From the NCBI RefSeq assembly GCF_058153355.1, contig NZ_CM177019.1: a stretch of DNA of 64,000 nucleotides. One strand, given 5' to 3'. Of this stretch, positions 5,777 to 55,761 are shown one piece after another. The translations under genes and the position numbers were made by a program. Positions within the stretch are counted from its first letter, which is position 1. Every line of letters begins with the position of its first letter. The notes beneath the pieces are model-generated. The model was given only the letters and a program-made list of their open reading frames with translations, ran no database searches and had not been told where the DNA came from.

Positions 5777-6370
5777 ATGACTTCTCTGTATTTAGCTTCC
5801 GGTTCTCCGCGTCGTCAGGAGTTACTTGCGCAACTTGGCGTGACCTTTGAACGTATTGTTACGGGCATTGAGGAGCAGCGTCAGCCGCAGGAGAGCGCGC
5901 AGCAATATGTTGTGCGTCTGGCGCGCGAGAAAGCACAGGCGGGTGTCACGCACACGGCGCAGGATCTCCCGGTGCTGGGTGCGGATACTATCGTTATCCT
6001 GAATGGAGAAGTGCTGGAGAAACCGCGCGACGCAGATCATGCGGCGCAGATGTTGCGCAAACTATCGGGTCAGACCCATCAGGTGATGACGGCAGTGGCG
6101 TTGGCCGACAGTCAGCACATTCTCGATTGCCTGGTGGTCACCGATGTGACGTTCAGAACGTTAACAGACGAAGACATCGCGGGCTATGTCGCCAGCGGAG
6201 AACCGTTAGATAAAGCAGGTGCATACGGTATTCAGGGGTTGGGTGGCTGTTTTGTCAGGAAGATAAATGGCAGCTATCACGCCGTAGTCGGCTTACCGCT
6301 GGTTGAAACGTATGAATTATTAAGTAATTTTAACGCACTGCGTGAGAAAAGGGATAAACATGACGGCTGA
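5777..6370 (+). CDS. yhdE: Maf-family nucleoside triphosphate pyrophosphatase YhdE
   Basis: 197-aa [24 protein letters not shown]... (Maf signature SGSPRR). Confidence 0.9.
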
Positions 6371-7829
6371 ATTGTTGGTAAACGTAACGCCTTCGGAAAC
6401 GCGAGTGGCGTATATTGATGGCGGTATTCTGCAGGAAATTCATATTGAACGTGAGGCGCGACGCGGAATAGTAGGCAATATCTACAAGGGTCGTGTAAGT
6501 CGTGTACTTCCGGGTATGCAGGCGGCTTTTGTAGATATTGGGCTGGATAAAGCCGCGTTTCTTCATGCATCCGACATCATGCCGCATACTGAGTGTGTGG
6601 CGGGTGAAGAGCAAAAGCAATTCACGGTGCGCGACATCTCGGAACTGGTCCGTCAGGGGCAAGATCTGATGGTGCAGGTGGTGAAAGATCCGCTTGGTAC
6701 TAAAGGTGCGCGCCTGACCACCGATATCACTCTGCCATCTCGCTATCTGGTTTTTATGCCAGGTGCTTCTCATGTTGGGGTTTCCCAACGTATCGAAAGC
6801 GAATCCGAACGTGAACGCCTGAAAAAAGTGGTCGCGGAGTATTGCGACGAGCAGGGCGGGTTTATCATCCGTACTGCAGCGGAAGGTGTTGGTGAGGCTG
6901 AACTGGCCTCCGATGCCGCTTATCTGAAACGTGTCTGGACCAAAGTCATGGAGCGTAAAAAGCGCCCGCAGACCCGTTATCAGCTATACGGCGAACTGGC
7001 GTTGGCGCAGCGTGTTCTGCGTGATTTCGCCGACGCCGAGCTGGACCGCATTCGCGTTGACTCGCGCCTGACTTACGAAGCATTGCTGGAGTTTACCTCG
7101 GAGTACATTCCCGAGATGACCAGCAAGCTGGAGCATTACACAGGCCGCCAACCGATTTTCGATCTCTTTGATGTTGAAAACGAAATCCAGCGGGCGCTGG
7201 AACGCAAAGTTGAACTAAAATCCGGTGGCTATCTGATTATCGACCAGACCGAAGCGATGACCACCGTGGACATCAATACCGGGGCGTTTGTCGGTCATCG
7301 CAATCTGGACGACACCATCTTCAATACCAATATTGAAGCGACGCAGGCTATTGCTCGCCAGTTACGGTTGCGTAACCTGGGCGGGATCATCATTATTGAT
7401 TTCATCGACATGAATAATGAAGATCACCGTCGCCGCGTGTTGCATTCGCTGGAGCAGGCGTTGAGCAAAGACCGGGTGAAAACCAGCGTTAATGGTTTTT
7501 CGGCGCTGGGGCTGGTGGAGATGACGCGTAAACGCACTCGCGAAAGCATTGAGCACGTACTATGTAACGAATGCCCAACCTGTCACGGTCGCGGAACGGT
7601 GAAAACCGTGGAAACGGTATGCTATGAAATCATGCGCGAGATTGTTCGTGTACACCATGCTTACGATTCCGACCGTTTCCTGGTCTATGCTTCTCCGGCA
7701 GTAGCCGAAGCCTTGAAAGGCGAAGAGTCACACTCGCTGGCGGAAGTGGAAATTTTCGTTGGCAAACAGGTTAAAGTACAAATTGAACCGCTCTATAACC
7801 AGGAGCAGTTTGACGTCGTAATGATGTAA
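6360..7829 (+). CDS. rng: Ribonuclease G
   Basis: ORF-track frame 6342-7829; canonical start [22 protein letters not shown] at 6360 gives 489 aa; S1 plus RNase E/G catalytic domain. Confidence 0.9.
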
Positions 7830-7896
7830 ACAGATGCTGGGCCGCCATCCGGCAAAGGGTTTTTGAGTCACATTTTTAGCAGACAAGGAGTGACGG

Positions 7897-10800
7897 GTGA
7901 GGCGATTGCCGGGGATTTTACTGCTTACTGGAGCCGCGCTCGTTGTGATCGCTGCCCTGCTGGTTAGCGGCCTGCGTATTGCTTTACCGCATCTTGACGC
8001 CTGGCGTCCGGAAATCCTCAACAAAATAGAATCCGCGACTGGCATGCCGGTAGAAGCCAGCCAGCTCTCAGCCAGCTGGCAGAATTTTGGCCCGACGCTT
8101 GAAGCGCGCGACATCCGTGCAGAGCTAAAAGATGGCGGCGAATTTTCGGTTAAACGCGTTACGCTGGCGCTGGATGTCTGGCAGAGCTTGTTACATATGC
8201 GCTGGCAGTTTCGTGACCTCACTTTCTGGCAGCTGCGCTTTCGCACCAACACTCCTATCACCAGCAGCGGTGGTAATGATAGCCTGGAAGCCAGTCACAT
8301 CAGCGATCTGTTTCTTCGTCAGTTCGACCATTTCGATCTCCGTGACAGCGAAGTCAGTTTCCTGACGCCATCCGGTCAGCGTGCTGAGCTGGCGATTCCA
8401 CAACTCACCTGGCTAAACGATCCACGTCGACACCGTGCGGAAGGCCAGGTAAGCCTCTCCAGCCTTACCGGTCAGCACGGCGTGATGCAGGTGCGCATGG
8501 ATTTGCGCGATGATGAGGGGTTGTTAAGCAATGGTCGAGTCTGGCTCCAGGCGGATGACATCGACCTGAAGCCGTGGCTCGGTAAATGGATGCAGGACAA
8601 TATTGCGCTGGAAACGGCACAGTTCTCCCTTGAAGGCTGGATGACGATCGACAAAGGCGATGTAACCGGCGGTGACGTCTGGCTGAAACAGGGCGGTGCC
8701 AGCTGGTTGGGCGAGAAGCAAACGCATACGCTGTCGGTGGATAATCTGACCGCGCATATTACGCGTGAAAACCCGGGCTGGCAGTTCTCTATTCCCGACA
8801 CACGGATCACGATGGACGGCAAACCCTGGCCGAGCGGAGCATTGACGCTGGCCTGGATACCGGAACAGAACGTTGGCGGCAAAGACAATAAACGCAGTGA
8901 CGAACTCCGGATTCGCGCCAGTAATCTGGAGCTGGCAGGCCTGGAGGGCGTACGCCCGCTGGCCGCGAAACTTTCACCTGCACTTGGTGATGTTTGGCGC
9001 TCCACACAACCGAGCGGCAAGATTAACACTCTGGCGCTGGATATCCCGCTTCAGGCGGCAGACAAGACCCGTTTTCAGGCATCGTGGAGCGATCTGGCCT
9101 GGAAGCAATGGAAATTATTACCGGGTGCGGAACACTTCTCCGGGACGCTTTCCGGCAGCGTAGAAAATGGTTTGCTTACCGCGTCGATGAAGCAGGCAAA
9201 GATGCCTTACGAAACGGTATTCCGTGCGCCACTGGAAATCGCAGACGGCCAGGCTACGATAAGCTGGCTGAACAATGACAAAGGTTTCCAGCTGGATGGG
9301 CGTAATATTGACGTTAAAGCCAAAGCCGTCCATGCGCGCGGCGGTTTTCGTTACCTGCAACCTGCTAACGATGAACCCTGGCTGGGTATTCTGGCTGGCA
9401 TCAGTACCGATGATGGTTCACAAGCCTGGCGCTATTTCCCGGAAAACTTGATGGGTAAAGACCTGGTTGATTACTTAAGTGGCGCGATTCAGGGCGGTGA
9501 AGCGGATAACGCGACGCTGGTTTATGGTGGTAATCCGCAACTCTTCCCCTATAAACACAATGAAGGTCAGTTTGAAGTGCTGGTGCCGCTGCGCAACGCG
9601 AAGTTTGCCTTCCAGCCGGACTGGCCTGCGTTAACGAACCTCGATATTGAACTGGACTTTATTAACGACGGTTTATGGATGAAAACCGATGGCGTTAATC
9701 TGGGCGGTGTGCGGGCCACTGATCTCACCGCAGTGATCCCTGACTACTCGAAAGAAAAACTGCTGATTGACGCTGACATTAAAGGTCCGGGTAAAGCCGT
9801 TGGCCCTTACTTTGATGAGACACCGTTGAAAGATTCTCTGGGTGCGACCCTGCAAGAACTCCAGCTCGACGGCGATGTGAATGCTCGCTTACATCTCGAT
9901 ATTCCGCTAAACGGCGAACTGGTTACCGCGAAAGGTGAAGTGACGCTGCGTAACAACAGTCTGTTTATCAAACCGCTTGATAGCACACTGAAAAATTTGA
10001 GCGGTAAATTCAGCTTTATCAATGGCGATCTGCAAAGCGAACCACTGACAGCAAGCTGGTTTAATCAGCCATTGAACGTGGATTTTTCCACCAAAGAAGG
10101 GACGAAAGCCTACCAGGTCGCGGTGAATCTCAACGGTAACTGGCAACCCGCGAAAACTGGCGTTCTGCCTGCAGCGGTGAACGAAGCATTGAGTGGCAGC
10201 GTGGCGTGGGATGGTAAAGTGGGCATTGAGCTGCCTTATCAAGCTGGCGCGACGTATAACGTAGAGCTAAACGGCGATTTGAAGAATGTGAGCAGTCACT
10301 TACCTTCACCGTTAGCCAAACCTGCGGGTGAACCACTGCCGGTAAACGTTAAGGTTGATGGCAATCTCAACAGTTTTGATTTAACCGGACAGGCTGGTGC
10401 GGATAACCATTTCAATAGCCGCTGGTTGCTTGGTCAAAAGCTGACGCTCGATCGTGCTATTTGGGCGGCAGACAGTAAAACGCTCCCGCCGTTGCCGGAA
10501 CAAAGTGGCGTTGAACTCAATATGCCGCCGATGAATGGTGCCGAGTGGCTGGCCCTGTTCCAGAAAGGTGCGGCGGAGAGTGTCGGTGGTGCAGCGAGTT
10601 TCCCACAACACATAACGTTACGTACGCCTATGTTGTCGCTGGGAAATCAGCAATGGAATAACCTGAGTATTGTTTCGCAACCGACGGCAAATGGCACCCA
10701 GGTTGAGGCGCAAGGGCGTGAAATCAACGCCACGCTGGCGATGCGTAATAACGCGCCGTGGCTGGCGAATATCAAATATCTTTATTACAACCCGAGCGAG

Positions 10801-11697
10801 GCGAAAACTCGTGGTGATTCAACGCCGTCATCACCTTTCCCGACAACGGAGCGCATTAACTTCCGTGGCTGGCCGGACGCACAAATACGATGCGCAGAGT
10901 GCTGGTTCTGGGGGCAAAAATTCGGTCGTATTGACAGTGATCTCACCATTTCTGGCGATACATTAACGCTGACCAATGGACTGATTGATACCGGTTTCTC
11001 GCGGCTCACTGCCGATGGTGAATGGGTTAATAATCCGGGGAATGAACGTACCTCGCTGAAAGGAAAACTGCGCGGGCAGAAAATTGATGCCGCCGCAGAA
11101 TTTTTTGGTGTCACGACGCCCATACGCCAGTCGTCATTTAATGTGGATTACGATTTACACTGGCGTAAAGCACCGTGGCAGCCAGATGAGGCGACGTTGA
11201 ATGGCATCATTCATACTCAACTGGGTAAAGGCGAAATTACCGAAATCAATACCGGACATGCCGGGCAATTGCTGCGCTTATTGAGCGTAGATGCCCTGAT
11301 GCGTAAGCTGCGTTTTGATTTCAGAGACACTTTTGGCGAAGGGTTCTATTTTGACTCCATTCGCAGCACCGCGTGGATTAAAGACGGCGTTATGCACACC
11401 GACGACACGCTGGTGGATGGCCTGGAGGCGGATATCGCCATGAAAGGGTCGGTAAATCTGGTACGTCGCGACCTGAATATGGAAGCGGTTGTCGCACCAG
11501 AGATTTCTGCGACGGTGGGCGTGGCTGCGGCTTTTGCGGTTAACCCCATTGTTGGAGCGGCAGTATTTGCAGCCAGTAAAGTGCTGGGGCCGCTGTGGAG
11601 CAAAGTCTCCATTTTGCGCTATCACATTTCGGGTCCGCTGGACGATCCGCAAATCAACGAAGTGTTGCGCCAACCGCGTAAAGAAAAAGCGCAATGA
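7897..11697 (+). CDS. yhdP: AsmA-family inner-membrane protein YhdP (envelope phospholipid transport)
   Basis: 1266-aa ORF with GTG start and N-terminal TM helix; length and position match YhdP. Confidence 0.9.
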   Translation: MRRLPGILLLTGAALVVIAALLVSGLRIALPHLDAWRPEILNKIESATGMPVEASQLSASWQNFGPTLEARDIRAELKDGGEFSVKRVTLALDVWQSLLHMRWQFRDLTFWQLRFRTNTPITSSGGNDSLEASHISDLFLRQFDHFDLRDSEVSFLTPSGQRAELAIPQLTWLNDPRRHRAEGQVSLSSLTGQHGVMQVRMDLRDDEGLLSNGRVWLQADDIDLKPWLGKWMQDNIALETAQFSLEGWMTIDKGDVTGGDVWLKQGGASWLGEKQTHTLSVDNLTAHITRENPGWQFSIPDTRITMDGKPWPSGALTLAWIPEQNVGGKDNKRSDELRIRASNLELAGLEGVRPLAAKLSPALGDVWRSTQPSGKINTLALDIPLQAADKTRFQASWSDLAWKQWKLLPGAEHFSGTLSGSVENGLLTASMKQAKMPYETVFRAPLEIADGQATISWLNNDKGFQLDGRNIDVKAKAVHARGGFRYLQPANDEPWLGILAGISTDDGSQAWRYFPENLMGKDLVDYLSGAIQGGEADNATLVYGGNPQLFPYKHNEGQFEVLVPLRNAKFAFQPDWPALTNLDIELDFINDGLWMKTDGVNLGGVRATDLTAVIPDYSKEKLLIDADIKGPGKAVGPYFDETPLKDSLGATLQELQLDGDVNARLHLDIPLNGELVTAKGEVTLRNNSLFIKPLDSTLKNLSGKFSFINGDLQSEPLTASWFNQPLNVDFSTKEGTKAYQVAVNLNGNWQPAKTGVLPAAVNEALSGSVAWDGKVGIELPYQAGATYNVELNGDLKNVSSHLPSPLAKPAGEPLPVNVKVDGNLNSFDLTGQAGADNHFNSRWLLGQKLTLDRAIWAADSKTLPPLPEQSGVELNMPPMNGAEWLALFQKGAAESVGGAASFPQHITLRTPMLSLGNQQWNNLSIVSQPTANGTQVEAQGREINATLAMRNNAPWLANIKYLYYNPSEAKTRGDSTPSSPFPTTERINFRGWPDAQIRCAECWFWGQKFGRIDSDLTISGDTLTLTNGLIDTGFSRLTADGEWVNNPGNERTSLKGKLRGQKIDAAAEFFGVTTPIRQSSFNVDYDLHWRKAPWQPDEATLNGIIHTQLGKGEITEINTGHAGQLLRLLSVDALMRKLRFDFRDTFGEGFYFDSIRSTAWIKDGVMHTDDTLVDGLEADIAMKGSVNLVRRDLNMEAVVAPEISATVGVAAAFAVNPIVGAAVFAASKVLGPLWSKVSILRYHISGPLDDPQINEVLRQPRKEKAQ

Positions 11698-20569: not shown

Positions 20570-20581
20570 GAGCACAGACTC
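20570..20581. repeat. Target-site duplication (left) of the IS4 insertion
   Basis: gagcacagactc directly abuts the IS4 left end; identical 12-mer at 22008-22019. Confidence 0.7.
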
Positions 20582-22007
20582 TAATGCCAGTCAGTTAAGC
20601 AACTGACTGGCTCTTTTTCGGGGCTGTGGGGTATTTCCAGGGCCTCTCCTTTACCACTCTCGGGAAGGCCCTTTCCCTTCTTGTCGGTAATTTCACAAGT
20701 TGTCCCATACTTGCAAGATCGCGCATCAGCTCCGGTATACGTCCCGGTGAAGCGCCCTGCAATGTCATCAGCATTCTCATCACCATTCCGCATGATTCTG
20801 AGAAACTCAGTTGATTCGGCCAGTAACCTTTCAGATGTTCCGCCATTTTAATCATCTGATATCTCACCAGATTATAAGCCAGTAAGACACCCCACAGCTC
20901 TTGCTCCACAAGCTCCGGCTTTTTACTTCTCAGCGTCAGCCTGCTCAGTTGCATCGTCTGTTTTATCTCCCTGTATCCCAGTTCGATTTCCCAGCGATGA
21001 CTGTACAGATCCGCCATTTCTCCTCCGGGGAAGCGCATGGCGTCCGTCATCGACGTCAGCAGATGGCAGACTTTTCCTTTGCGCGTCACGGTCAGCAGGC
21101 GGGCTGTCACTTCATTTCCCAGTCCCGGCCACTTTTTTCGTGCCTGCGGGCTGGTTTTCAGCTTCACCAGATGATCGCCTTTACCCAGTTTTCTGATCTC
21201 TTCATATTGCGCTCCCTTTCTGAGAGGTATCATCCAGTGGCGGTGTTCTCCCGCCAGGCTCCAGGCATTTAACAGTCCCAGTGAGTAATAACCTTTATCC
21301 ATTAACGTCAGAGTGTTATCGCCGGTTTGTTCTATAAGTTGCTCAGCAAGCTCATTTTCGCTGTTCTTCATCGTGCCGAAGGCTGCAGCCGTCAGCAGAT
21401 GGCTGGTCAGTTCCATCTGGCAGACCATTTTGACCTGCGGGTAGAGCGCCGGGTTCCCGGCATGTGTCTGGCGGGGGAAGGCTGCATCGTTCTCTGGTGT
21501 ATCCGGTGTGCGCCAGAACACACCATCGATGGCCAGCAGGGTCAGGCCGCACCAGTGCGGATGCGGCGTGGCGTTATGCCAGAGCTGCGCTGTTTTCGTG
21601 AACACGCGGCGGACAGCCTCACTTCCCAGGCGCTGGCGGGCCTGAATAACGGCACTGGGGGCAACGAAGGGGCGATTGCCCGGCAGCATGATGTCCAGGC
21701 GATTCACAATCTGGTGAAGAGGTTCTTTACGCTCAAGCGCCATGCCAACAATACACCAGACCATCATTTCGAGGGGAAGACGGCGCTTGCGTAGCGTTAC
21801 AGTACCTGATTCGGCAAGGCAACGAGAGATGAGTTCGGGGTCGAGGTAATCCCCCAGAGAAGTCAGTGGGTTACGCAGAGAATCGTAACGGGATACCAGA
21901 TCAAGAGCCTGTCCAATGTGCATAAAAAAATCCGGAAACAAGTGAGCGTTTCCGGATTCTTACACAGCCACTGGATCGGTCAACTGATCCTTAACTGATC
22001 GGCATTA
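20582..22007 (-). mobile_element. IS4 insertion sequence, complete (1426 bp)
   Basis: Imperfect terminal inverted repeats taatgccagtcagttaagc (left) and ccttaactgatcggcatta (right); single transposase ORF; flanked by a 12-bp direct repeat; length matches IS4. Confidence 0.9.
20595..21923 (-). CDS. insG: IS4 transposase (InsG-like, DDE family)
   Basis: Canonical start [32 protein letters not shown] inside ORF-track frame 20595-21941; 442 aa. Confidence 0.9.
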
Positions 22008-22019
22008 GAGCACAGACTC
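22008..22019. repeat. Target-site duplication (right) of the IS4 insertion
   Basis: gagcacagactc directly abuts the IS4 right end; identical to 20570-20581. Confidence 0.7.
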
Positions 22020-32738: not shown

Positions 32739-34229
32739 ATGAGTACTACAACCCAGAATATCCCGTGGTATCGCCATCTCAACCGCGCACAATGGCGCGC
32801 ATTTTCCGCTGCCTGGTTGGGATATCTGCTTGACGGTTTTGATTTCGTTTTAATCGCCCTGGTACTCACCGAAGTACAAGGTGAATTCGGGCTGACGACG
32901 GTACAGGCGGCAAGTCTGATCTCCGCAGCCTTTATCTCTCGCTGGTTCGGCGGCCTGATGCTTGGCGCTATGGGCGACCGCTACGGGCGTCGTCTGGCAA
33001 TGGTTACCAGTATCGTTCTCTTCTCGGCCGGGACGCTGGCCTGCGGCTTTGCGCCAGGCTACATCACCATGTTTATTGCTCGTCTGGTCATCGGCATGGG
33101 GATGGCGGGAGAATACGGCTCCAGCGCCACCTATGTCATTGAACGCTGGCCAAAACATCTGCGTAACAAAGCCAGTGGCTTTCTGATTTCCGGCTTCTCG
33201 GTGGGTGCCGTCGTTGCCGCTCAGGTCTACAGCCTGGTGGTTCCGGTCTGGGGCTGGCGAGCGCTGTTCTTTATCGGCATTTTGCCAATCATCTTTGCTC
33301 TCTGGCTGCGTAAAAACATTCCGGAAGCGGAAGACTGGAAAGAGAAACACGCAGGTAAAGCACCAGTACGCACGATGGTAGACATTCTTTACCGTGGTGA
33401 ACATCGCATTGCCAATATCGTAATGACGCTGGCGGCGGCTACTGCGCTGTGGTTCTGCTTCGCTGGTAACCTGCAAAATGCCGCAATCGTCGCTGTTCTC
33501 GGGCTGTTATGTGCCGCAATCTTTATCAGCTTTATGGTTCAGAGTACGGGCAAACGCTGGCCAACGGGCGTAATGCTGATGGTGGTTGTGTTATTTGCTT
33601 TCCTCTACTCATGGCCGATTCAGGCACTGCTGCCAACGTATCTGAAAACCGATCTTGCTTATGACCCGCATACTGTTGCCAATGTGCTGTTCTTTAGTGG
33701 CTTTGGTGCGGCGGTGGGGTGCTGCGTCGGTGGCTTCCTCGGTGACTGGCTGGGAACCCGCAAAGCGTACGTTTGCAGTCTGCTGGCCTCACAGCTGCTG
33801 ATTATTCCGGTATTTGCGATTGGTGGCGCAAACGTCTGGGTGCTCGGTCTGTTACTGTTCTTCCAGCAAATGCTTGGACAAGGGATCGCCGGGATCTTAC
33901 CGAAACTGATTGGCGGTTATTTCGATACCGACCAGCGTGCAGCGGGCCTGGGCTTTACCTACAACGTTGGCGCATTGGGCGGCGCACTGGCCCCAATCAT
34001 CGGCGCGTTGATCGCTCAACGCCTGGATCTGGGTACTGCGCTGGCATCGCTTTCGTTTAGCCTGACGTTCGTGGTGATCCTGCTGATTGGGCTGGATATG
34101 CCTTCTCGCGTTCAGCGTTGGTTGCGCCCGGAAGCGTTGCGTACTCATGACGCTATCGACGGCAAACCATTTAGCGGTGCCGTGCCGTTTGGCAGCGCTA
34201 AAAACGATTTAGTCAAAACCAAAAGTTAA
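32739..34229 (+). CDS. nanT: Sialic acid:H+ symporter NanT (MFS)
   Basis: Canonical start [22 protein letters not shown] inside ORF-track frame 32709-34229; 496 aa. Confidence 0.9.
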
Positions 34230-34275
34230 TCCTGTTGCCCGGTCTTCTACCGGGCCTTTCGCTAAGGGAAGATGT

Positions 34276-34961
34276 ATGTCGTTACTTGCACAACTGGATC
34301 AAAAAATCGCTGCTAACGGTGGCCTGATTGTCTCCTGCCAGCCGGTTCCGGACAGCCCACTCGATAAACCTGAAATCGTCGCCGCCATGGCATTAGCGGC
34401 AGAGCAGGCGGGAGCGGTTGCCATTCGTATTGAAGGTGTGACAAATCTGCAAGCCACGCGTGCGGTGGTGAGTGTGCCGATTATCGGGATTGTGAAACGC
34501 GATCTAGAGGATTCTCCGGTACGCATCACGGCATATATTGAAGATGTCGATGCGCTGGCGCAGGCAGGCGCGGATATCATCGCGATTGACGGCACCGACC
34601 GACCGCGTCCGGTGCCTGTTGAAACGCTACTGGCACGTATCCACCATCACGGTTTACTGGCGATGACCGACTGCTCAACGCCGGAAGACGGCCTGGCATG
34701 CCAAAAGCTGGGAGCCGAAATTATTGGCACTACGCTTTCTGGCTATACCACACCTGAAACGCCAGAAGAGCCGGATCTGGCGCTGGTGAAAACGTTGAGC
34801 GACGCCGGATGTCGGGTGATTGCCGAAGGGCGTTACAACTCGCCTGCTCAGGCGGCGGATGCGATGCGCCACGGTGCATGGGCGGTAACGGTCGGTTCTG
34901 CTATCACGCGTCTTGAACACATTTGTCAGTGGTACAACACAGCGATGAAAAAGGCGGTGCT

Positions 34962-34965
<4 letters not shown>
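34276..34965 (+). CDS. nanE: N-acetylmannosamine-6-phosphate 2-epimerase
   Basis: 229-aa [32 protein letters not shown]... Confidence 0.9.
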
Positions 34966-36298
<1,333 letters not shown>

Positions 36299-36367: not shown

Positions 36368-37234
36368 CTATAGCCTTCCTCTAGCACCGCCTGTGTTCGA
36401 ACGAGTTCGGCGGTGGAAAAACAGCAGATCGACACGAAACCAGTTGTCATCAATGCGTAACCTTCGCTGCCGACCAACAAAGGCAAAATCATCCCCAAGT
36501 TCCAGCATTAAATCCATCAGGTGATTGATCAGCGCCTCCTCAAAATCGGATTCTGAGTATTCATCTTTCAATTCCAGAAATTCGAGCACAAAGGGATCGC
36601 GTATCGCCTGTTGCGGAAGAATATGCGTCTCGGCAGGAGCGTGTTGTTGCAGCATGGCTGATTTGTCATGTGACAGTAGTGTTCGCTCATAAAATTGGGT
36701 CGCAATTTGCCGCTCTAGCTGGCGGACAGACCAACCACAGCGGAGCGCCTCTTTTTCATAAAAGCTGCGGGCGTCAGCGTTTTTAACGGAAAGTAGACGG
36801 ACGTAGGTGGACCAAGGCAGGGGGAACGATTTGGCAGACAGCGTCTGCCAAATCTTTGCCGATGGGAATTCTGCAGACGGTGTCTGCGGAATTCCCAATG
36901 GTGTTAATTCGCCAGACACTGTCTGGCGAATTTCAACATGTTGAAAAAAGAGGTAAAAAAGCCTCATTTGGCGTAAGTTTTTTGCAGAGAACCCACGCTT
37001 ATACCTTAGACTTAAATCCTTTGATAGTCGCTTGATTAGCTGCGCACCATACGCAGCTCTGGCCTCGCCACCTTGTTCAAATTCGACAATTCGTCGGCCA
37101 ATTTCCCAGTACGTCGCGGTCATCAGCGCGTTAACGCTACGTACCGTTTCCGTTCGGGCGCTATCGACCAGATGAATAATGCCGTCGTGGATTTGCTGGT
37201 AGCCTGCTGTGGTTCCTTCTGAGAGCGATTCCAT
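36368..37234 (-). pseudogene. yhcG: yhcG-like DUF1016 / PD-(D/E)XK nuclease-family gene, apparently truncated near the 3' end
   Basis: 288-aa ORF MESLSEGTTAGYQQIHDGIIHLVDSARTE... runs to ...RIDDNWFRVDLLFFHRR then gives 12 unrelated residues and a stop; the following ExK nuclease motif is absent; K-12 YhcG recalled as about 375 aa. Confidence 0.5.
36830..36932. repeat. Three tandem perfect palindromes (CAGAC-N3-GTCTG cores) inside the yhcG coding sequence
   Basis: tttggcagacagcgtctgccaaa (36830-36852), gaattctgcagacggtgtctgcggaattc (36866-36894), aattcgccagacactgtctggcgaatt (36906-36932); each encodes I-x-Q-T-x-S-x-E/K on the minus strand. Confidence 0.7.
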
Positions 37235-37417
37235 TATCTTTCCCTTTATATGGCGCAGTGTTGAATAATGGAATCAGCTATACGCCGGGCATCTGCCGGT
37301 AACAATCCAGATGTGCGTATTACATTGGTTTTCTTCAGATTATGCGAGGCGCTTTCCAGAACGAAAGGAGAATTTCAGCGCCGACTCTTTTCTGAGGAGG
37401 CGGCGCTGGGACAGAGC

Positions 37418-47575: not shown

Positions 47576-48229
47576 ATGAAGAAAATTGGCGTAATTCTGA
47601 GCGGATGCGGCGTCTATGACGGTTCTGAAATTCATGAAGCGGTGTTGACGTTGTTAGCTATTTCACGCAGCGGTGCGCAGGCGGTCTGCTTTGCACCGGA
47701 TAAGCAGCAGGTTGATGTTATCAACCATTTAACTGGCGAAGCGATGACGGAAACGCGCAATGTGCTGATTGAAGCGGCACGAATAACGCGCGGTGAAATC
47801 CGTCCTCTGGCTCAGGCCGATGCCGCTGAACTGGATGCGTTGATTGTGCCGGGGGGGTTTGGCGCGGCGAAGAATTTAAGCAATTTTGCCAGTCTTGGTA
47901 GCGAATGCACCGTTGACCGTGAATTAAAGGCGCTGGCACAAGCGATGCATCAGGCCGGAAAACCGCTTGGTTTTATGTGTATTGCCCCGGCGATGCTGCC
48001 GAAAATTTTCGATTTCCCGCTGCGTTTGACCATCGGTACTGATATCGATACCGCAGAAGTGCTGGAAGAGATGGGCGCGGAGCATGTGCCGTGTCCTGTC
48101 GATGATATCGTGGTTGATGAAGACAATAAGATTGTCACCACCCCGGCATATATGCTTGCGCAGAACATTGCAGAAGCGGCGAGCGGCATTGATAAGCTGG
48201 TTTCCCGCGTGCTGGTTCTGACTGAATGA
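47576..48229 (+). CDS. elbB: DJ-1/PfpI-family protein ElbB (YhbL)
   Basis: Canonical start [26 protein letters not shown] inside ORF-track frame 47567-48229; 217 aa. Confidence 0.85.
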
Positions 48230-48954
48230 GTAAAAGCCGCTTAACGGTGTTTAGTTTCGTTCGCCGTTTTCTTCTACGGTTAATGGTTGTCCTCGCCATT
48301 TTCTGGGGCGGGGGCATCGCGTTGTTTAGCGTTGCGCCTGTTCCTTTCTCAGCGGTAATGGCCGAGCGACAAGTCAGCGCCTGGCTGCATGGCAATTTTC
48401 GTTACGTGGCACATTCTGACTGGGTCAGTATGGATCAAATCTCGCCGTGGATGGGACTGGCGGTGATTGCCGCAGAAGATCAGAAGTTTCCTGAGCACTG
48501 GGGCTTTGATGTCGCTTCCATTGAGCAAGCCCTGGCGCACAACGAGCGCAATGAAAACCGTATTCGCGGCGCATCAACGATTTCTCAGCAAACAGCCAAA
48601 AATCTCTTTTTATGGGATGGACGTAGCTGGGTACGAAAAGGGTTGGAAGCCGGATTAACGCTGGGGATAGAAACAGTCTGGAGCAAAAAGCGTATCCTGA
48701 CGGTTTACCTGAATATCGCCGAATTTGGCGACGGTGTGTTTGGCGTCGAAGCTGCGGCACAACGTTATTTCCACAAACCCGCGAGCAAACTTACCCGGTC
48801 GGAAGCTGCGTTACTGGCTGCCGTATTACCTAATCCACTGCGTTTCAAAGTCTCCGCGCCATCGGGCTATGTGCGTAGCCGTCAGGCGTGGATTTTACGG
48901 CAGATGTATCAGTTAGGCGGTGAGTCGTTTATGCAACAACACCAGCTGAATTAA
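48226..48954 (+). CDS. mtgA: Monofunctional peptidoglycan glycosyltransferase MtgA
   Basis: 242-aa ORF with transglycosylase motifs ([21 protein letters not shown]); start overlaps elbB stop. Confidence 0.9.
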
Positions 48955-49795: not shown

Positions 49796-50068
49796 TTAAT
49801 CTTCATCAAAACCAGAGTTAAAGAGGGCGATAACGGCGGCCAGTGCTTCCTCTTCCTGTGGACCGGTCGCTTCGACTTCAATCTGCCGTCCTTTGGCAGA
49901 ATCCAGCATCAGCAGCGCAATAACGCTGTTGGCTTCAGCTTCAGTGCCTTCATCGTTACGTAACAGCACTTCAGCGTCAAAACCCTGCATTAATTCAAAC
50001 AGCTTCATTGCAGGCCGGGCATGCATGCCCAGCTTGTTTGTGATTTCAACAGTTTGCTTGACGGTCAT
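49796..50068 (-). CDS. ptsO: Phosphocarrier protein NPr (PTS-Ntr)
   Basis: 90-aa HPr-like [33 protein letters not shown]... Confidence 0.9.
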
Positions 50069-50919
50069 GGTTTACGTTTTTCCAGCGTACGATGGCGTGA
50101 CTGGACGTTTTTACCGCGTGAACGGAAGTAGTCTGCCAACTGCTCTGCAATATACACCGAACGGTGCTTCCCGCCAGTACAACCAATGGCGACCGTCAGG
50201 TAGCTACGGTTGTTGGTTTCCAGCATAGGTAACCATAGCTCAAGATAGCTTCGCGTCTGGTAAATAAAATTGTGTACTTCTGTGTGGCGGTCGAGGAACG
50301 CGGCGACAGGCTTATCAAGACCTGTCATCGGACGCAGTTTTGGATCCCAGTGCGGGTTCGGCAAGAAGCGCACGTCAAAGACGTAATCTGCATCGATAGG
50401 GATACCGTGTTTGAAGCCGAAAGACTCAAAGACCATGGTCAGTTCGCGTTCACGTTTACCCAGTAAACGGGTACGCAACATTTCTGCCAGCTCGTGAACG
50501 GACATTTCTGAGGTATCGACAATCAGATCCGCTCGCGAACGCAGTGGTTCCAGTAGATCGCTTTCTTTGTCGATAGCACTTTCCAGCGACAGGTTTTTGC
50601 TGGAAAGGGGATGCAGGCGGCGCGTGTCACTGTAACGACGAATTAAGGTATTACGGTCGGCATCCAGGAACAGGAGTTGCGGTGAGAAAGCGTCAGGTAG
50701 GTTACTCATCGCCTGTTCGAATATTTCTGGTGACTCCGGCATATTACGAACATCAATGCTGACGGCGGCAGAAATCTCGCGATCGGCCAGAGTTCGAGCC
50801 AGATCGGGTAACAACACTACGGGGAGGTTATCCACGCAGTAAAAACCCATATCTTCCAGCGCACGAAGGGCGACAGATTTACCTGAACCTGAACGTCCGC
50901 TGACGATCATCAGTACCAT
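50065..50919 (-). CDS. rapZ: RNase adaptor protein RapZ (YhbJ)
   Basis: 284-aa ORF with P-loop [26 protein letters not shown]. Confidence 0.9.
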
Positions 50920-54096: not shown

Positions 54097-54654
54097 TTAA
54101 TTACCCTTCTTCTGTGCCGGGGTCTGGCCTTTGTTGTTTTTGTCCTGCAGCTGCGACGGCACCAGAACGGTGGTTACGCGCTTGCCTTTGTCGCTGAACG
54201 CCTGCATTTTCTGCTCTTTCACCAGGTAAGTGATCTTATCACCCTTAATGTTGCTATCGACCTGCTGCAGATAAGCATTACCCGTCAGAACGACAAAATC
54301 TTTTGCCAGTTCGTAGTGCATCTGGGAAGCGTGACCTTCAACGGGTTTACCGTTGTCCTGCATCTGGTAGAACGTTGCCGGTTTACCGTAGCCGTCAATC
54401 ACTTCTTTACCTTGTTCGCCGCCCGGACGGGTAACGACCACTTTGTCGGCATTAATTTTGATGGTGCCCTGGGTGACGATGACATTACCGGTAAAGGTAA
54501 CCACGTTGCCTTGCATATCAAGAGATTGCTGGTCCGATTCAATGTGGATCGGCTGATCAGTGTCTCCGGTTACGGCAAATGCCGGAATGCTGGCGGCCAG
54601 AAGTGAGCTGGCAAGCACAAGATTAAGGCTGAGTTTGTTTGTTTTGAATTTCAT
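54097..54654 (-). CDS. lptA: Periplasmic LPS transport protein LptA
   Basis: Canonical start MKFKTNKLSLNLVLASSLLAASIPAFA inside ORF-track frame 54097-54675; 185 aa. Confidence 0.9.
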   Translation of the reverse strand: MKFKTNKLSLNLVLASSLLAASIPAFAVTGDTDQPIHIESDQQSLDMQGNVVTFTGNVIVTQGTIKINADKVVVTRPGGEQGKEVIDGYGKPATFYQMQDNGKPVEGHASQMHYELAKDFVVLTGNAYLQQVDSNIKGDKITYLVKEQKMQAFSDKGKRVTTVLVPSQLQDKNNKGQTPAQKKGN

Positions 54655-55198
54655 AGGATGTTCTAACCTTTTCAATCAGCTCGGCGTTCTTGCTGCGTAA
54701 GTTGCCGCGCATTTTCAGACCGCTGGAGTTAAATGTTGTTCCGTATAACGTGACAAGGTCTTCAGAGGTAACATCCTGCGTCACCAGATTGATCTGCGCG
54801 TTATCCGTCGTGATTCTGCGAAGTTGAGAGTCCGGCACGAGTGCGTTGACTTCAACGTGTCCATATAAATAGAGCATCCGGTCATTGGTCAGCTTGGCTT
54901 TATCTGCTTTTACGGACCATGTCGGGATTTTATCCTTATCAAACGTGGTAAGTACCGGCTGCGTAAACCACGAAACGGCCTGATCGGAATAATATTCAAC
55001 GTGTTGAGCAATCAATCGATAGCTTAGTGCCCCTTCTGGGTTATAGACGAGCGTGTCCGTATGCTCGCTTTTATAGGTGGGATCATTGTTGTTGACGACC
55101 ACCTGGGCGGTATCGTCTTTTTCGGCCATATTAATGCCGATCATCACCAGAACCGCCAGTGATAGCACAATGATAACCCAACGTCTGGCTTTACTCAT
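54623..55198 (-). CDS. lptC: LPS transport protein LptC
   Basis: 191-aa ORF MSKARRWVIIVLSLAVLVMIGINMAEKDD...; 3' end overlaps the lptA start by about 32 bp. Confidence 0.9.
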   Translation of the reverse strand: MSKARRWVIIVLSLAVLVMIGINMAEKDDTAQVVVNNNDPTYKSEHTDTLVYNPEGALSYRLIAQHVEYYSDQAVSWFTQPVLTTFDKDKIPTWSVKADKAKLTNDRMLYLYGHVEVNALVPDSQLRRITTDNAQINLVTQDVTSEDLVTLYGTTFNSSGLKMRGNLRSKNAELIEKVRTSYEIQNKQTQP

Positions 55199-55761
55199 AT
55201 CGATTGCCCTTTGGCTTCATCCAGTTTGCCCTGCGCCAGGAGTAATAAGTCGCAAACTTCTCGCACTGCGCCACGACCGCCAGCAATGCGCGTCACGTAA
55301 TCGGCGCGCGGGAGCAACAGTGGATGCGCATCGGCCACGGCGATGCTTAAACCCACTTTTTCCATTACCGGCCAGTCAATGAGATCATCGCCGACATAAG
55401 CCACATTTTCCGGGGCAATTGCCAGTTTTTCCAGCAGATCGCTAAAGGCGATCAGTTTGTTTGACTGCCCCTGATACAAGTGAGTGATCCCCAATGTGGC
55501 ACAACGATCTTCTACCAGTTTAGCCTTTCGCCCGGTAATGATAGCGACTTCAATATCAGAGGTGAGCGCACAACGAATGCCATAACCGTCACGAACATTG
55601 AACGCTTTCAGCTCTTCGCCATTATTGCCCATATAAATCAGGCCATCTGACAGTACGCCATCGACATCGAGGATCAGCAGACGAATGTTCTCTGCTTTTG
55701 CCATAACGTCGGCGCTGACAGGGCCGTAACAGGTCGCAAGCGACGCACCTGCTTTGCTCAT
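55195..55761 (-). CDS. kdsC: 3-deoxy-D-manno-octulosonate 8-phosphate phosphatase KdsC
   Basis: 188-aa HAD-family ORF with DVDGVLSDG motif. Confidence 0.9.
   Translation of the reverse strand: MSKAGASLATCYGPVSADVMAKAENIRLLILDVDGVLSDGLIYMGNNGEELKAFNVRDGYGIRCALTSDIEVAIITGRKAKLVEDRCATLGITHLYQGQSNKLIAFSDLLEKLAIAPENVAYVGDDLIDWPVMEKVGLSIAVADAHPLLLPRADYVTRIAGGRGAVREVCDLLLLAQGKLDEAKGQSI

Follow-up and report, generated by a model that had tools for sequence, protein, structure and literature searches.

The lptA gene of the analyzed window, the whole stretch of 64,000 nucleotides, is most likely translated by ribosomes that initiate independently at a region of its own lying within lptC. The length of the lptC/lptA overlap would then reflect a variable LptC tail. 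The start/stop overlaps of 4 and 1 bp found elsewhere in the window are ordinary. Coupling to lptC translation probably makes at most a minor contribution beside independent initiation. The initial annotation had taken the overlapping frames at 54623-54654 as a sign of translational coupling. This claim was not sustained: reporters with a spacing of -25 nt are uncoupled, internal promoters express lptA, no RNA structure masking its start was found, and the lptC stop wanders while the lptA start is frozen. It is for these same reasons that independent initiation is favored.

Coordinates of the coding sequences were carried over onto the window from three RefSeq E. coli annotations. The 56 CDSs that transferred in full run from mreB to sfsB, and each of them is an intact ORF with a proper start and stop codon. 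The window is part of an E. coli chromosome: an 8-kb piece around lptC/lptA finds a match in 5,425 of the 5,426 complete E. coli genomes, with identities that are mostly 95-99% (best 99.8%). The lineage is a less common one, with at least 99% identity to the tested window pieces in only 18 of the 5,425 genomes. The lptC and lptA genes are 100% identical to those of one RefSeq E. coli strain.

Other parts of the window show local peculiarities. Between mdh and degS sits an inserted IS4 element (20581-22008; transposase CDS at 20595-21941, minus strand), and the whole mdh-IS4-degS arrangement occurs in only 9 of 5,426 complete E. coli genomes, IAI39 included. The yhcG gene (36408-37417) aligns only in part, at 88.6% identity with 15 gaps and short of its full length, and the VWA/DUF5682/ATPase/DUF5691/SWIM cluster of about 8 kb that strain MFDS1022581 carries between yhcG and gltD is missing. 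Over nanT-nanE-nanK-nanQ the identity to the closest annotated strains is uneven (32739-36298; nanE 94.6%, nanQ 96.1%), and rng/yhdP (6360-11697) stands at about 96.7%, with most neighbors at 99-100%. These uneven identities of the nan and rng/yhdP regions suggest a recombination mosaic.

The junction between lptC and lptA consists of the following elements:

54097-54654, minus strand: lptA CDS, 185 aa, with its ATG at 54652-54654; 100% identical to the RefSeq gene
54623-55198, minus strand: lptC CDS, 191 aa, with its TAA stop at 54623-54625 (transferred annotation)
54623-54654, minus strand: out-of-frame overlap of 32 bp, shared by the 3' end of lptC and the 5' end of lptA

The overlap, first reported as about 32 bp, is thus exactly of that length in the transferred annotation. 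It encodes LptC residues 182-191 (YEIQNKQTQP*) in one frame and LptA residues 1-11 (MKFKTNKLSLN) in the other. Both products are recognized by their NCBIfam equivalog models over the full length, LptA by NF008143 (/ TIGR03002) from residue 1 (368.4 bits, cut-off 234) and LptC by NF008142 (/ TIGR04409; 364.1 bits, cut-off 230). Residue 182, where the TIGR04409 LptC profile ends, is the site of the lptA ATG; the lptA start is therefore anchored at the C-terminal limit of the conserved LptC domain. The conserved domain profile of LptA begins at residue 28. In neither protein does the overlap reach the conserved domain: in LptC it covers residues 183-191, in LptA the n-region of the signal peptide. 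The gene order kdsD-kdsC-lptC-lptA-lptB of the window is also found in distant loci (L086-L089 and L093), and yrbG-lptB has been described as a six-cistron operon (PMC4986956).

Conservation of the junction was assessed in 80 Enterobacteriaceae species, represented by the best 80 loci from an LptA-alignment scan of genome contigs, and in about 11 loci from distant gammaproteobacteria, several of them metagenomic, which were recovered through cluster representatives and exact-protein contig look-ups and whose starts are gene-caller predictions. In all 80 of these best Enterobacteriaceae loci the lptA start is an ATG in a TATGAA context, placed within the LptC codons Tyr182-Glu183 (TAT-GAA), and the same placement holds for most of the distant loci. 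A TATGAA-embedded lptA ATG also occurs in L087, L088, L089 and L093, and the same context is found at an alternative start of L095 and in a second frame of L085.

The position of the lptC stop varies. The overlap measures 32 nt in 76 of the 80 Enterobacteriaceae species, even at about 70% LptC identity, and 17 nt in two others, owing to an earlier lptC stop. In Entomohabitans teleogrylli (L060) and Tenebrionibacter intestinalis (L072) the TAA of lptC has become TCA or TAC, LptC is extended and the overlap reaches 170 and 101 nt, respectively; this stop loss indicates that selection on the LptC tail and on the stop position is not tight. Among distant loci, gene-called overlaps are 8 nt in Ca. 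Providencia siddallii, 26 nt in a Pantoea sp. and 20 nt in Grimontia, with five further loci at 14, 14, 20, 20 and 44 nt and two showing gene-called gaps (+14 and +21 nt) instead of an overlap. Every lptC/lptA overlap length equals 2 modulo 3.

Some of the loci surveyed are peculiar in their own right. On the AT-rich metagenomic contig of L085 (2380-2520) lptC as called stops prematurely behind a poly-A run, leaving the gap of +21. A second frame, ...NIELIQKVKTSYETQN (reading ...KVKTSYETQN), restores a TATGAA-anchored overlap of 20 nt, pointing to a frameshift in the poly-A run that is either genuine or an artefact of assembly. In the reduced endosymbiont Serratia symbiotica (L092, LN890288.1) lptC is followed by lptB and then, about 190 nt later, by lptA, so both adjacency and overlap of lptC and lptA are dissolved there. 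Contig CACSKA010000008.1 (L074), labelled Chryseobacterium sp. 18061, carries an Enterobacteriaceae-type lptC-lptA pair (81% LptA identity) with a 17-nt overlap, the same as in 'Citrobacter sp. 18056' (L066); the assembly is probably mislabelled or contaminated.

Inside the overlap only positions +8, +11 and +14 vary, all of them third codon positions of lptC and second codon positions of lptA, so that the amino-acid changes fall on the n-region of LptA and leave the LptC tail intact. Entropy at lptA third positions is 0.08 bits within the overlap versus 1.21 bits downstream (p = 5e-7), and normal variability resumes immediately past the lptC stop. Selection for stop-start proximity would yield the reverse of this combination of a frozen start context and a wandering stop.

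As judged from the alignments, the annotated lptA ATG is right. Residues M1, K2, N6, K7, L8 and S9 of LptA are invariant and the hydrophobic core of the signal peptide is variable. A further start lies upstream in the same frame:

54673-54675, minus strand: TTG, the longest-ORF start of lptA, adding 7 codons; not the real start

It is extremely unlikely that the 32-bp overlap is an annotation artefact, with lptA starting either at this TTG (54675) or at a GTG at codon 13 (54616-54618). The longest lptA ORF does begin at the TTG, but an in-frame stop separates it from the ATG in 6 of the 80 species. The GTG is located 4 nt past the lptC stop; codon 13, however, is variable and often not a start codon, and a start there is disfavored because the positively charged n-region of the signal peptide would be lost. 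Both alternatives also conflict with the ATG present in all 80 best loci, the invariant N-terminal residues and the alignment of the NF008143 profile from LptA residue 1. Searches of the TRAINSPOTTER (PMC13245402) and INRI-seq (PMC9825163) supplements by gene name and b-number returned neither lptA nor lptC among the entries listed, which counts on the side of an artefact; the entries listed were the annotated npr start and an unrelated internal mreD site. Solved LptA structures (PDB constructs) begin at residue 27 or 28, and N-terminal proteomics of mature LptA is blind to the start because the first 27 residues are a cleaved signal peptide.

It had also been proposed that the overlaps explain why naive ORF calling picks wrong starts. 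The longest-ORF start differs from the annotated one in 22 of the 56 window genes, and lptA is among them, its naive start lengthening the overlap to 53 nt. Genes downstream of an overlap are nevertheless mis-started about as often as the others (4/9 versus 18/47; Fisher p = 0.73), and the explanation fails.

Immediately upstream of the lptA ATG, inside lptC and outside the overlap, lies a stretch in which not even the synonymous sites vary among about 80 Enterobacteriaceae species (best loci):

54660-54681, minus strand: invariant 22-nt block GAGCTGATTGAAAAGGTTAGAAC, at -27 to -6 from the lptA ATG

Seven consecutive third-codon positions of lptC in the block have a mean entropy of 0.08 bits, versus 1.22 bits upstream (p = 2e-5), the lowest of 781 seven-codon windows across kdsC-lptC-lptA-lptB in 78 species. 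The block is more constrained than the truly dual-coding lptC/lptA overlap, whereas the 3' end of kdsC before the lptC start shows only mild constraint (0.58 bits). A rare AGA codon is contained in the block, as is an SD-like AAGG 12 nt from the ATG, too far for a canonical SD; the best lptA SD duplex reaches only -3.4 kcal/mol and is placed 11 nt from the start. The block probably represents the lptA translation-initiation region. A longer lptA from the TTG at -21 was rejected as the cause of the conservation, since 6 of 80 species have in-frame stops and the changes seen at -5 and -2 are non-conservative. A known RNA family, a sigma-70 promoter and a stable structure are likewise unsupported as its cause. 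More tentatively, and against the odds in our estimate, the block may be a dedicated cis-regulatory element within lptC (an sRNA or protein site, or a non-SD ribosome standby site or enhancer) that would tune LptA to LPS-transport status. An Rfam search at the lptA start gave no match beyond a chance snoRNA (E = 0.86), and a literature search found no paper tying lptA to RIL-seq or Hfq targets. The dosage of LptA is critical for the LPS bridge, and LptA is a current antibiotic target. An invariant synonymous block is in this respect a small, testable lead on how LptA dosage is set.

Transcription of lptA is served by more than one promoter. In E. coli yrbGp is the main, strong promoter of the operon, and the minor, ancillary promoters lptAp1, which is sigma-E-dependent, and lptAp2 lie within lptC and alone drive lptAB when lptC transcription is interrupted; their output alone was considered possibly insufficient under critical conditions (PMC4986956). 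Such insufficiency could stem either from weaker transcription or from the loss of a coupling contribution. A plasmid carrying lptA only has served as replacement for an lptCA plasmid in plasmid shuffling (PMC4986956). In the window, one motif is a candidate for the published lptAp1:

54715-54742, minus strand: sigma-E-like motif GGAACAA-N16-TCTGA inside lptC, 61-88 nt upstream of the lptA ATG

The sigma-E-type pattern GGAACNN-N15-17-TCTGA has 3 matches in the window versus 0.26 expected from shuffles. The other exact matches fall in coding regions, at 6641-6669 (plus strand, rng) and 50523-50551 (minus strand, rapZ). A sigma-70 promoter scan of 54500-55300 returned 0 matches, which leaves lptAp2 without an assigned position.

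In the proposed mechanism of independent initiation, the lptA start codon would be fixed by the LptC codons Tyr182-Glu183, and the overlap would be as long as the short, variable LptC tail beyond Tyr-Glu happens to be. Ribosomes would initiate lptA de novo at an A-rich, unstructured region embedded in lptC, which would offer only the weak, distant SD-like AAGG. This region would serve the long yrbG-operon mRNA as well as the shorter lptAB mRNAs issuing from the lptC-internal promoters.

Several other modes of lptA translation were weighed against independent initiation. In termination-reinitiation, ribosomes ending lptC at its TAA would back up about 29 nt and restart at the lptA ATG, so that LptA would be tied to LptC. 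We consider this unlikely. LptC and LptA partner directly in the Lpt bridge, and genes for subunits of a complex show an enrichment of overlaps (PMC10666635). Against this, the lptC stop lies 29 nt downstream of the lptA ATG, outside the proximity of a few nt associated with coupling. In a review (PMC12548453), coupling is described as best at -4 to +3 and as falling faster with overlap than with spacing, and a systematic reporter study cited there found none at -25 nt. Since coupling drops with overlap length, lptC/lptA is the junction where reinitiation is least expected. The weak, distant lptA SD would fit a start aided by ribosomes delivered from lptC; however, both lptA-only plasmids and transcripts without the start of lptC give lptA expression (PMC4986956). 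The overlap is retained across many lineages, but with the lptC stop 8 to 170 nt downstream and the start context invariant. A literature search found no paper measuring lptA translation with versus without lptC translation.

Coupling could also operate through RNA unfolding, with ribosomes on lptC opening a structure that would otherwise hide the lptA start. Although ribosomes translating lptC necessarily cross the lptA initiation region, and a weak pairing of AAGGU (-16..-12) with GCCUU (+26..+30) is predicted, this route appears quite improbable. The start region is A-rich, and the minimum free energy of the 121-nt region around it equals that of shuffles (z = -0.06; 93 of 200 shuffles fold as well). 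The consensus fold of 22 species reaches only -5.8 kcal/mol with 0 compensatory pairs. Neither the 121-nt fold nor the 22-species consensus revealed a stable RNA structure hiding the lptA SD or start. The chance is similarly slim that ribosomes on the 3' end of lptC act in the opposite sense, occluding 30S loading at lptA, so that LptA would come mainly from lptAp transcripts or vary inversely with lptC translation. Geometry alone would allow it, the lptA initiation region being wholly within translated lptC, and the dedicated internal promoters respond to LPS-transport defects (PMC4986956). Yet yrbGp is the main promoter and lptAp minor in that same work, which suggests that most LptA is made from the long mRNA. 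Independent initiation at the embedded region thus remains the preferred reading for lptA.

The remaining overlaps of the window, as given by the transferred annotation for the co-directional pairs, are these:

5280, plus strand: mreC/mreD, TAGTG overlap of 1 bp, with GTG as the mreD start
6360-6370, plus strand: yhdE/rng, co-directional overlap of 11 bp
34962-34965, plus strand: nanE/nanK, ATGA overlap of 4 bp
35834-35837, plus strand: nanK/nanQ (= yhcH), ATGA overlap of 4 bp
48226-48229, plus strand: elbB/mtgA, ATGA overlap of 4 bp
48951-48954, both strands: mtgA (plus) and yrbL (minus), convergent 3'-end overlap of 4 bp
50065-50068, minus strand: rapZ/npr, ATGA overlap of 4 bp
55195-55198, minus strand: kdsC/lptC, ATGA overlap of 4 bp
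60778, plus strand: mlaC/mlaB, TAATG overlap of 1 bp

All seven short start/stop overlaps listed in the initial annotation are present, five of 4 bp and two of 1 bp; the 11-bp yhdE/rng overlap and the convergent mtgA/yrbL overlap, which is irrelevant to coupling, were absent from its list. The seven junctions belong to the start/stop-codon overlap class (ATGA, TAATG or TAGTG; same strand, adjacent genes), and in each of them the upstream stop is within a few nt of the downstream start; lptC/lptA (32 nt) and yhdE/rng (11 nt) fall outside this class. The ATGA overlap of kdsC/lptC is kept in 77 of 79 Enterobacteriaceae loci drawn from the best-matching ones. The call for start-site data to confirm the downstream starts finds an answer for npr, whose ATG inside the rapZ/npr ATGA is backed by an N-terminal peptide and by INRI-seq (TRAINSPOTTER supplement, PMC13245402).

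Nine of the 44 co-directional neighbor pairs in the window overlap. A spacing of exactly -4 occurs in five of the 44 (binomial p = 7e-8 under a uniform spacing null; p = 2e-5 when the null is restricted to the range -32..+30). Spacings of -4 and -1 are the commonest in prokaryotes, and -4 overlaps arise easily because an ATG followed by A yields a TGA stop. Pairs with spacings of -8..+6 make up 11 of the 44 (25%), compared with 707 of 2987 (24%) genome-wide in E. coli (PMC10666635). The share of such spacings in the window is therefore typical of E. coli and not above the norm. The overlaps lie in conserved operons, where the initial annotation rightly expected them. The window overlaps are ordinary, already known E. 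coli operon junctions.

These observations have some practical bearing. Any engineering or deletion of lptC must spare the sequence around the lptA ATG, from about 30 nt before it to 32 nt after it. The initiation region of lptA is located there, with the internal promoters further upstream. Gene callers should not be tuned against overlaps at lptC/lptA. Also, a fixed start with a wandering stop illustrates that overlap alone is no evidence of translational coupling, especially where overlaps are long. The significance is otherwise small: the overlaps are a textbook feature of operons, and the one of 32 nt between lptC and lptA has already been published.

Termination-reinitiation coupling at spacings of -4 and -1 has been shown for E. 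coli hyfH-hyfI, ydbH-ynbE and menD-menH. The coupled -4/-1 pairs studied by Huber et al. 2019/2023 and reviewed by Brown & Wade 2025 have the same spacings as the seven window junctions, which by analogy probably allow some coupling of this kind. However, the coupling in those studies belongs to other E. coli pairs, none of them from the window, and the window pairs kdsC/lptC, elbB/mtgA and rapZ/npr do not encode subunits of one complex.

The lptC/lptA junction is one of the longer (more than about 25 nt) out-of-frame co-directional bacterial overlaps, a minority given that over 80% of prokaryotic overlaps are under 30 bp, and both proteins are constrained across it. Within this class it is an old overlap, anchored on conserved Tyr-Glu codons, and no recent stop-loss accident. 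Its direct counterpart is the yrbG-kdsD-kdsC-lptC-lptA-lptB locus of E. coli K-12, described by the Polissi and Deho groups, which according to PMC4986956 has the same genes, the same order and the same 32-nt overlap (in print for MG1655), together with the ancillary sigma-E-dependent lptAp1 and lptAp2 inside lptC. From this K-12 locus the window differs in nothing material.
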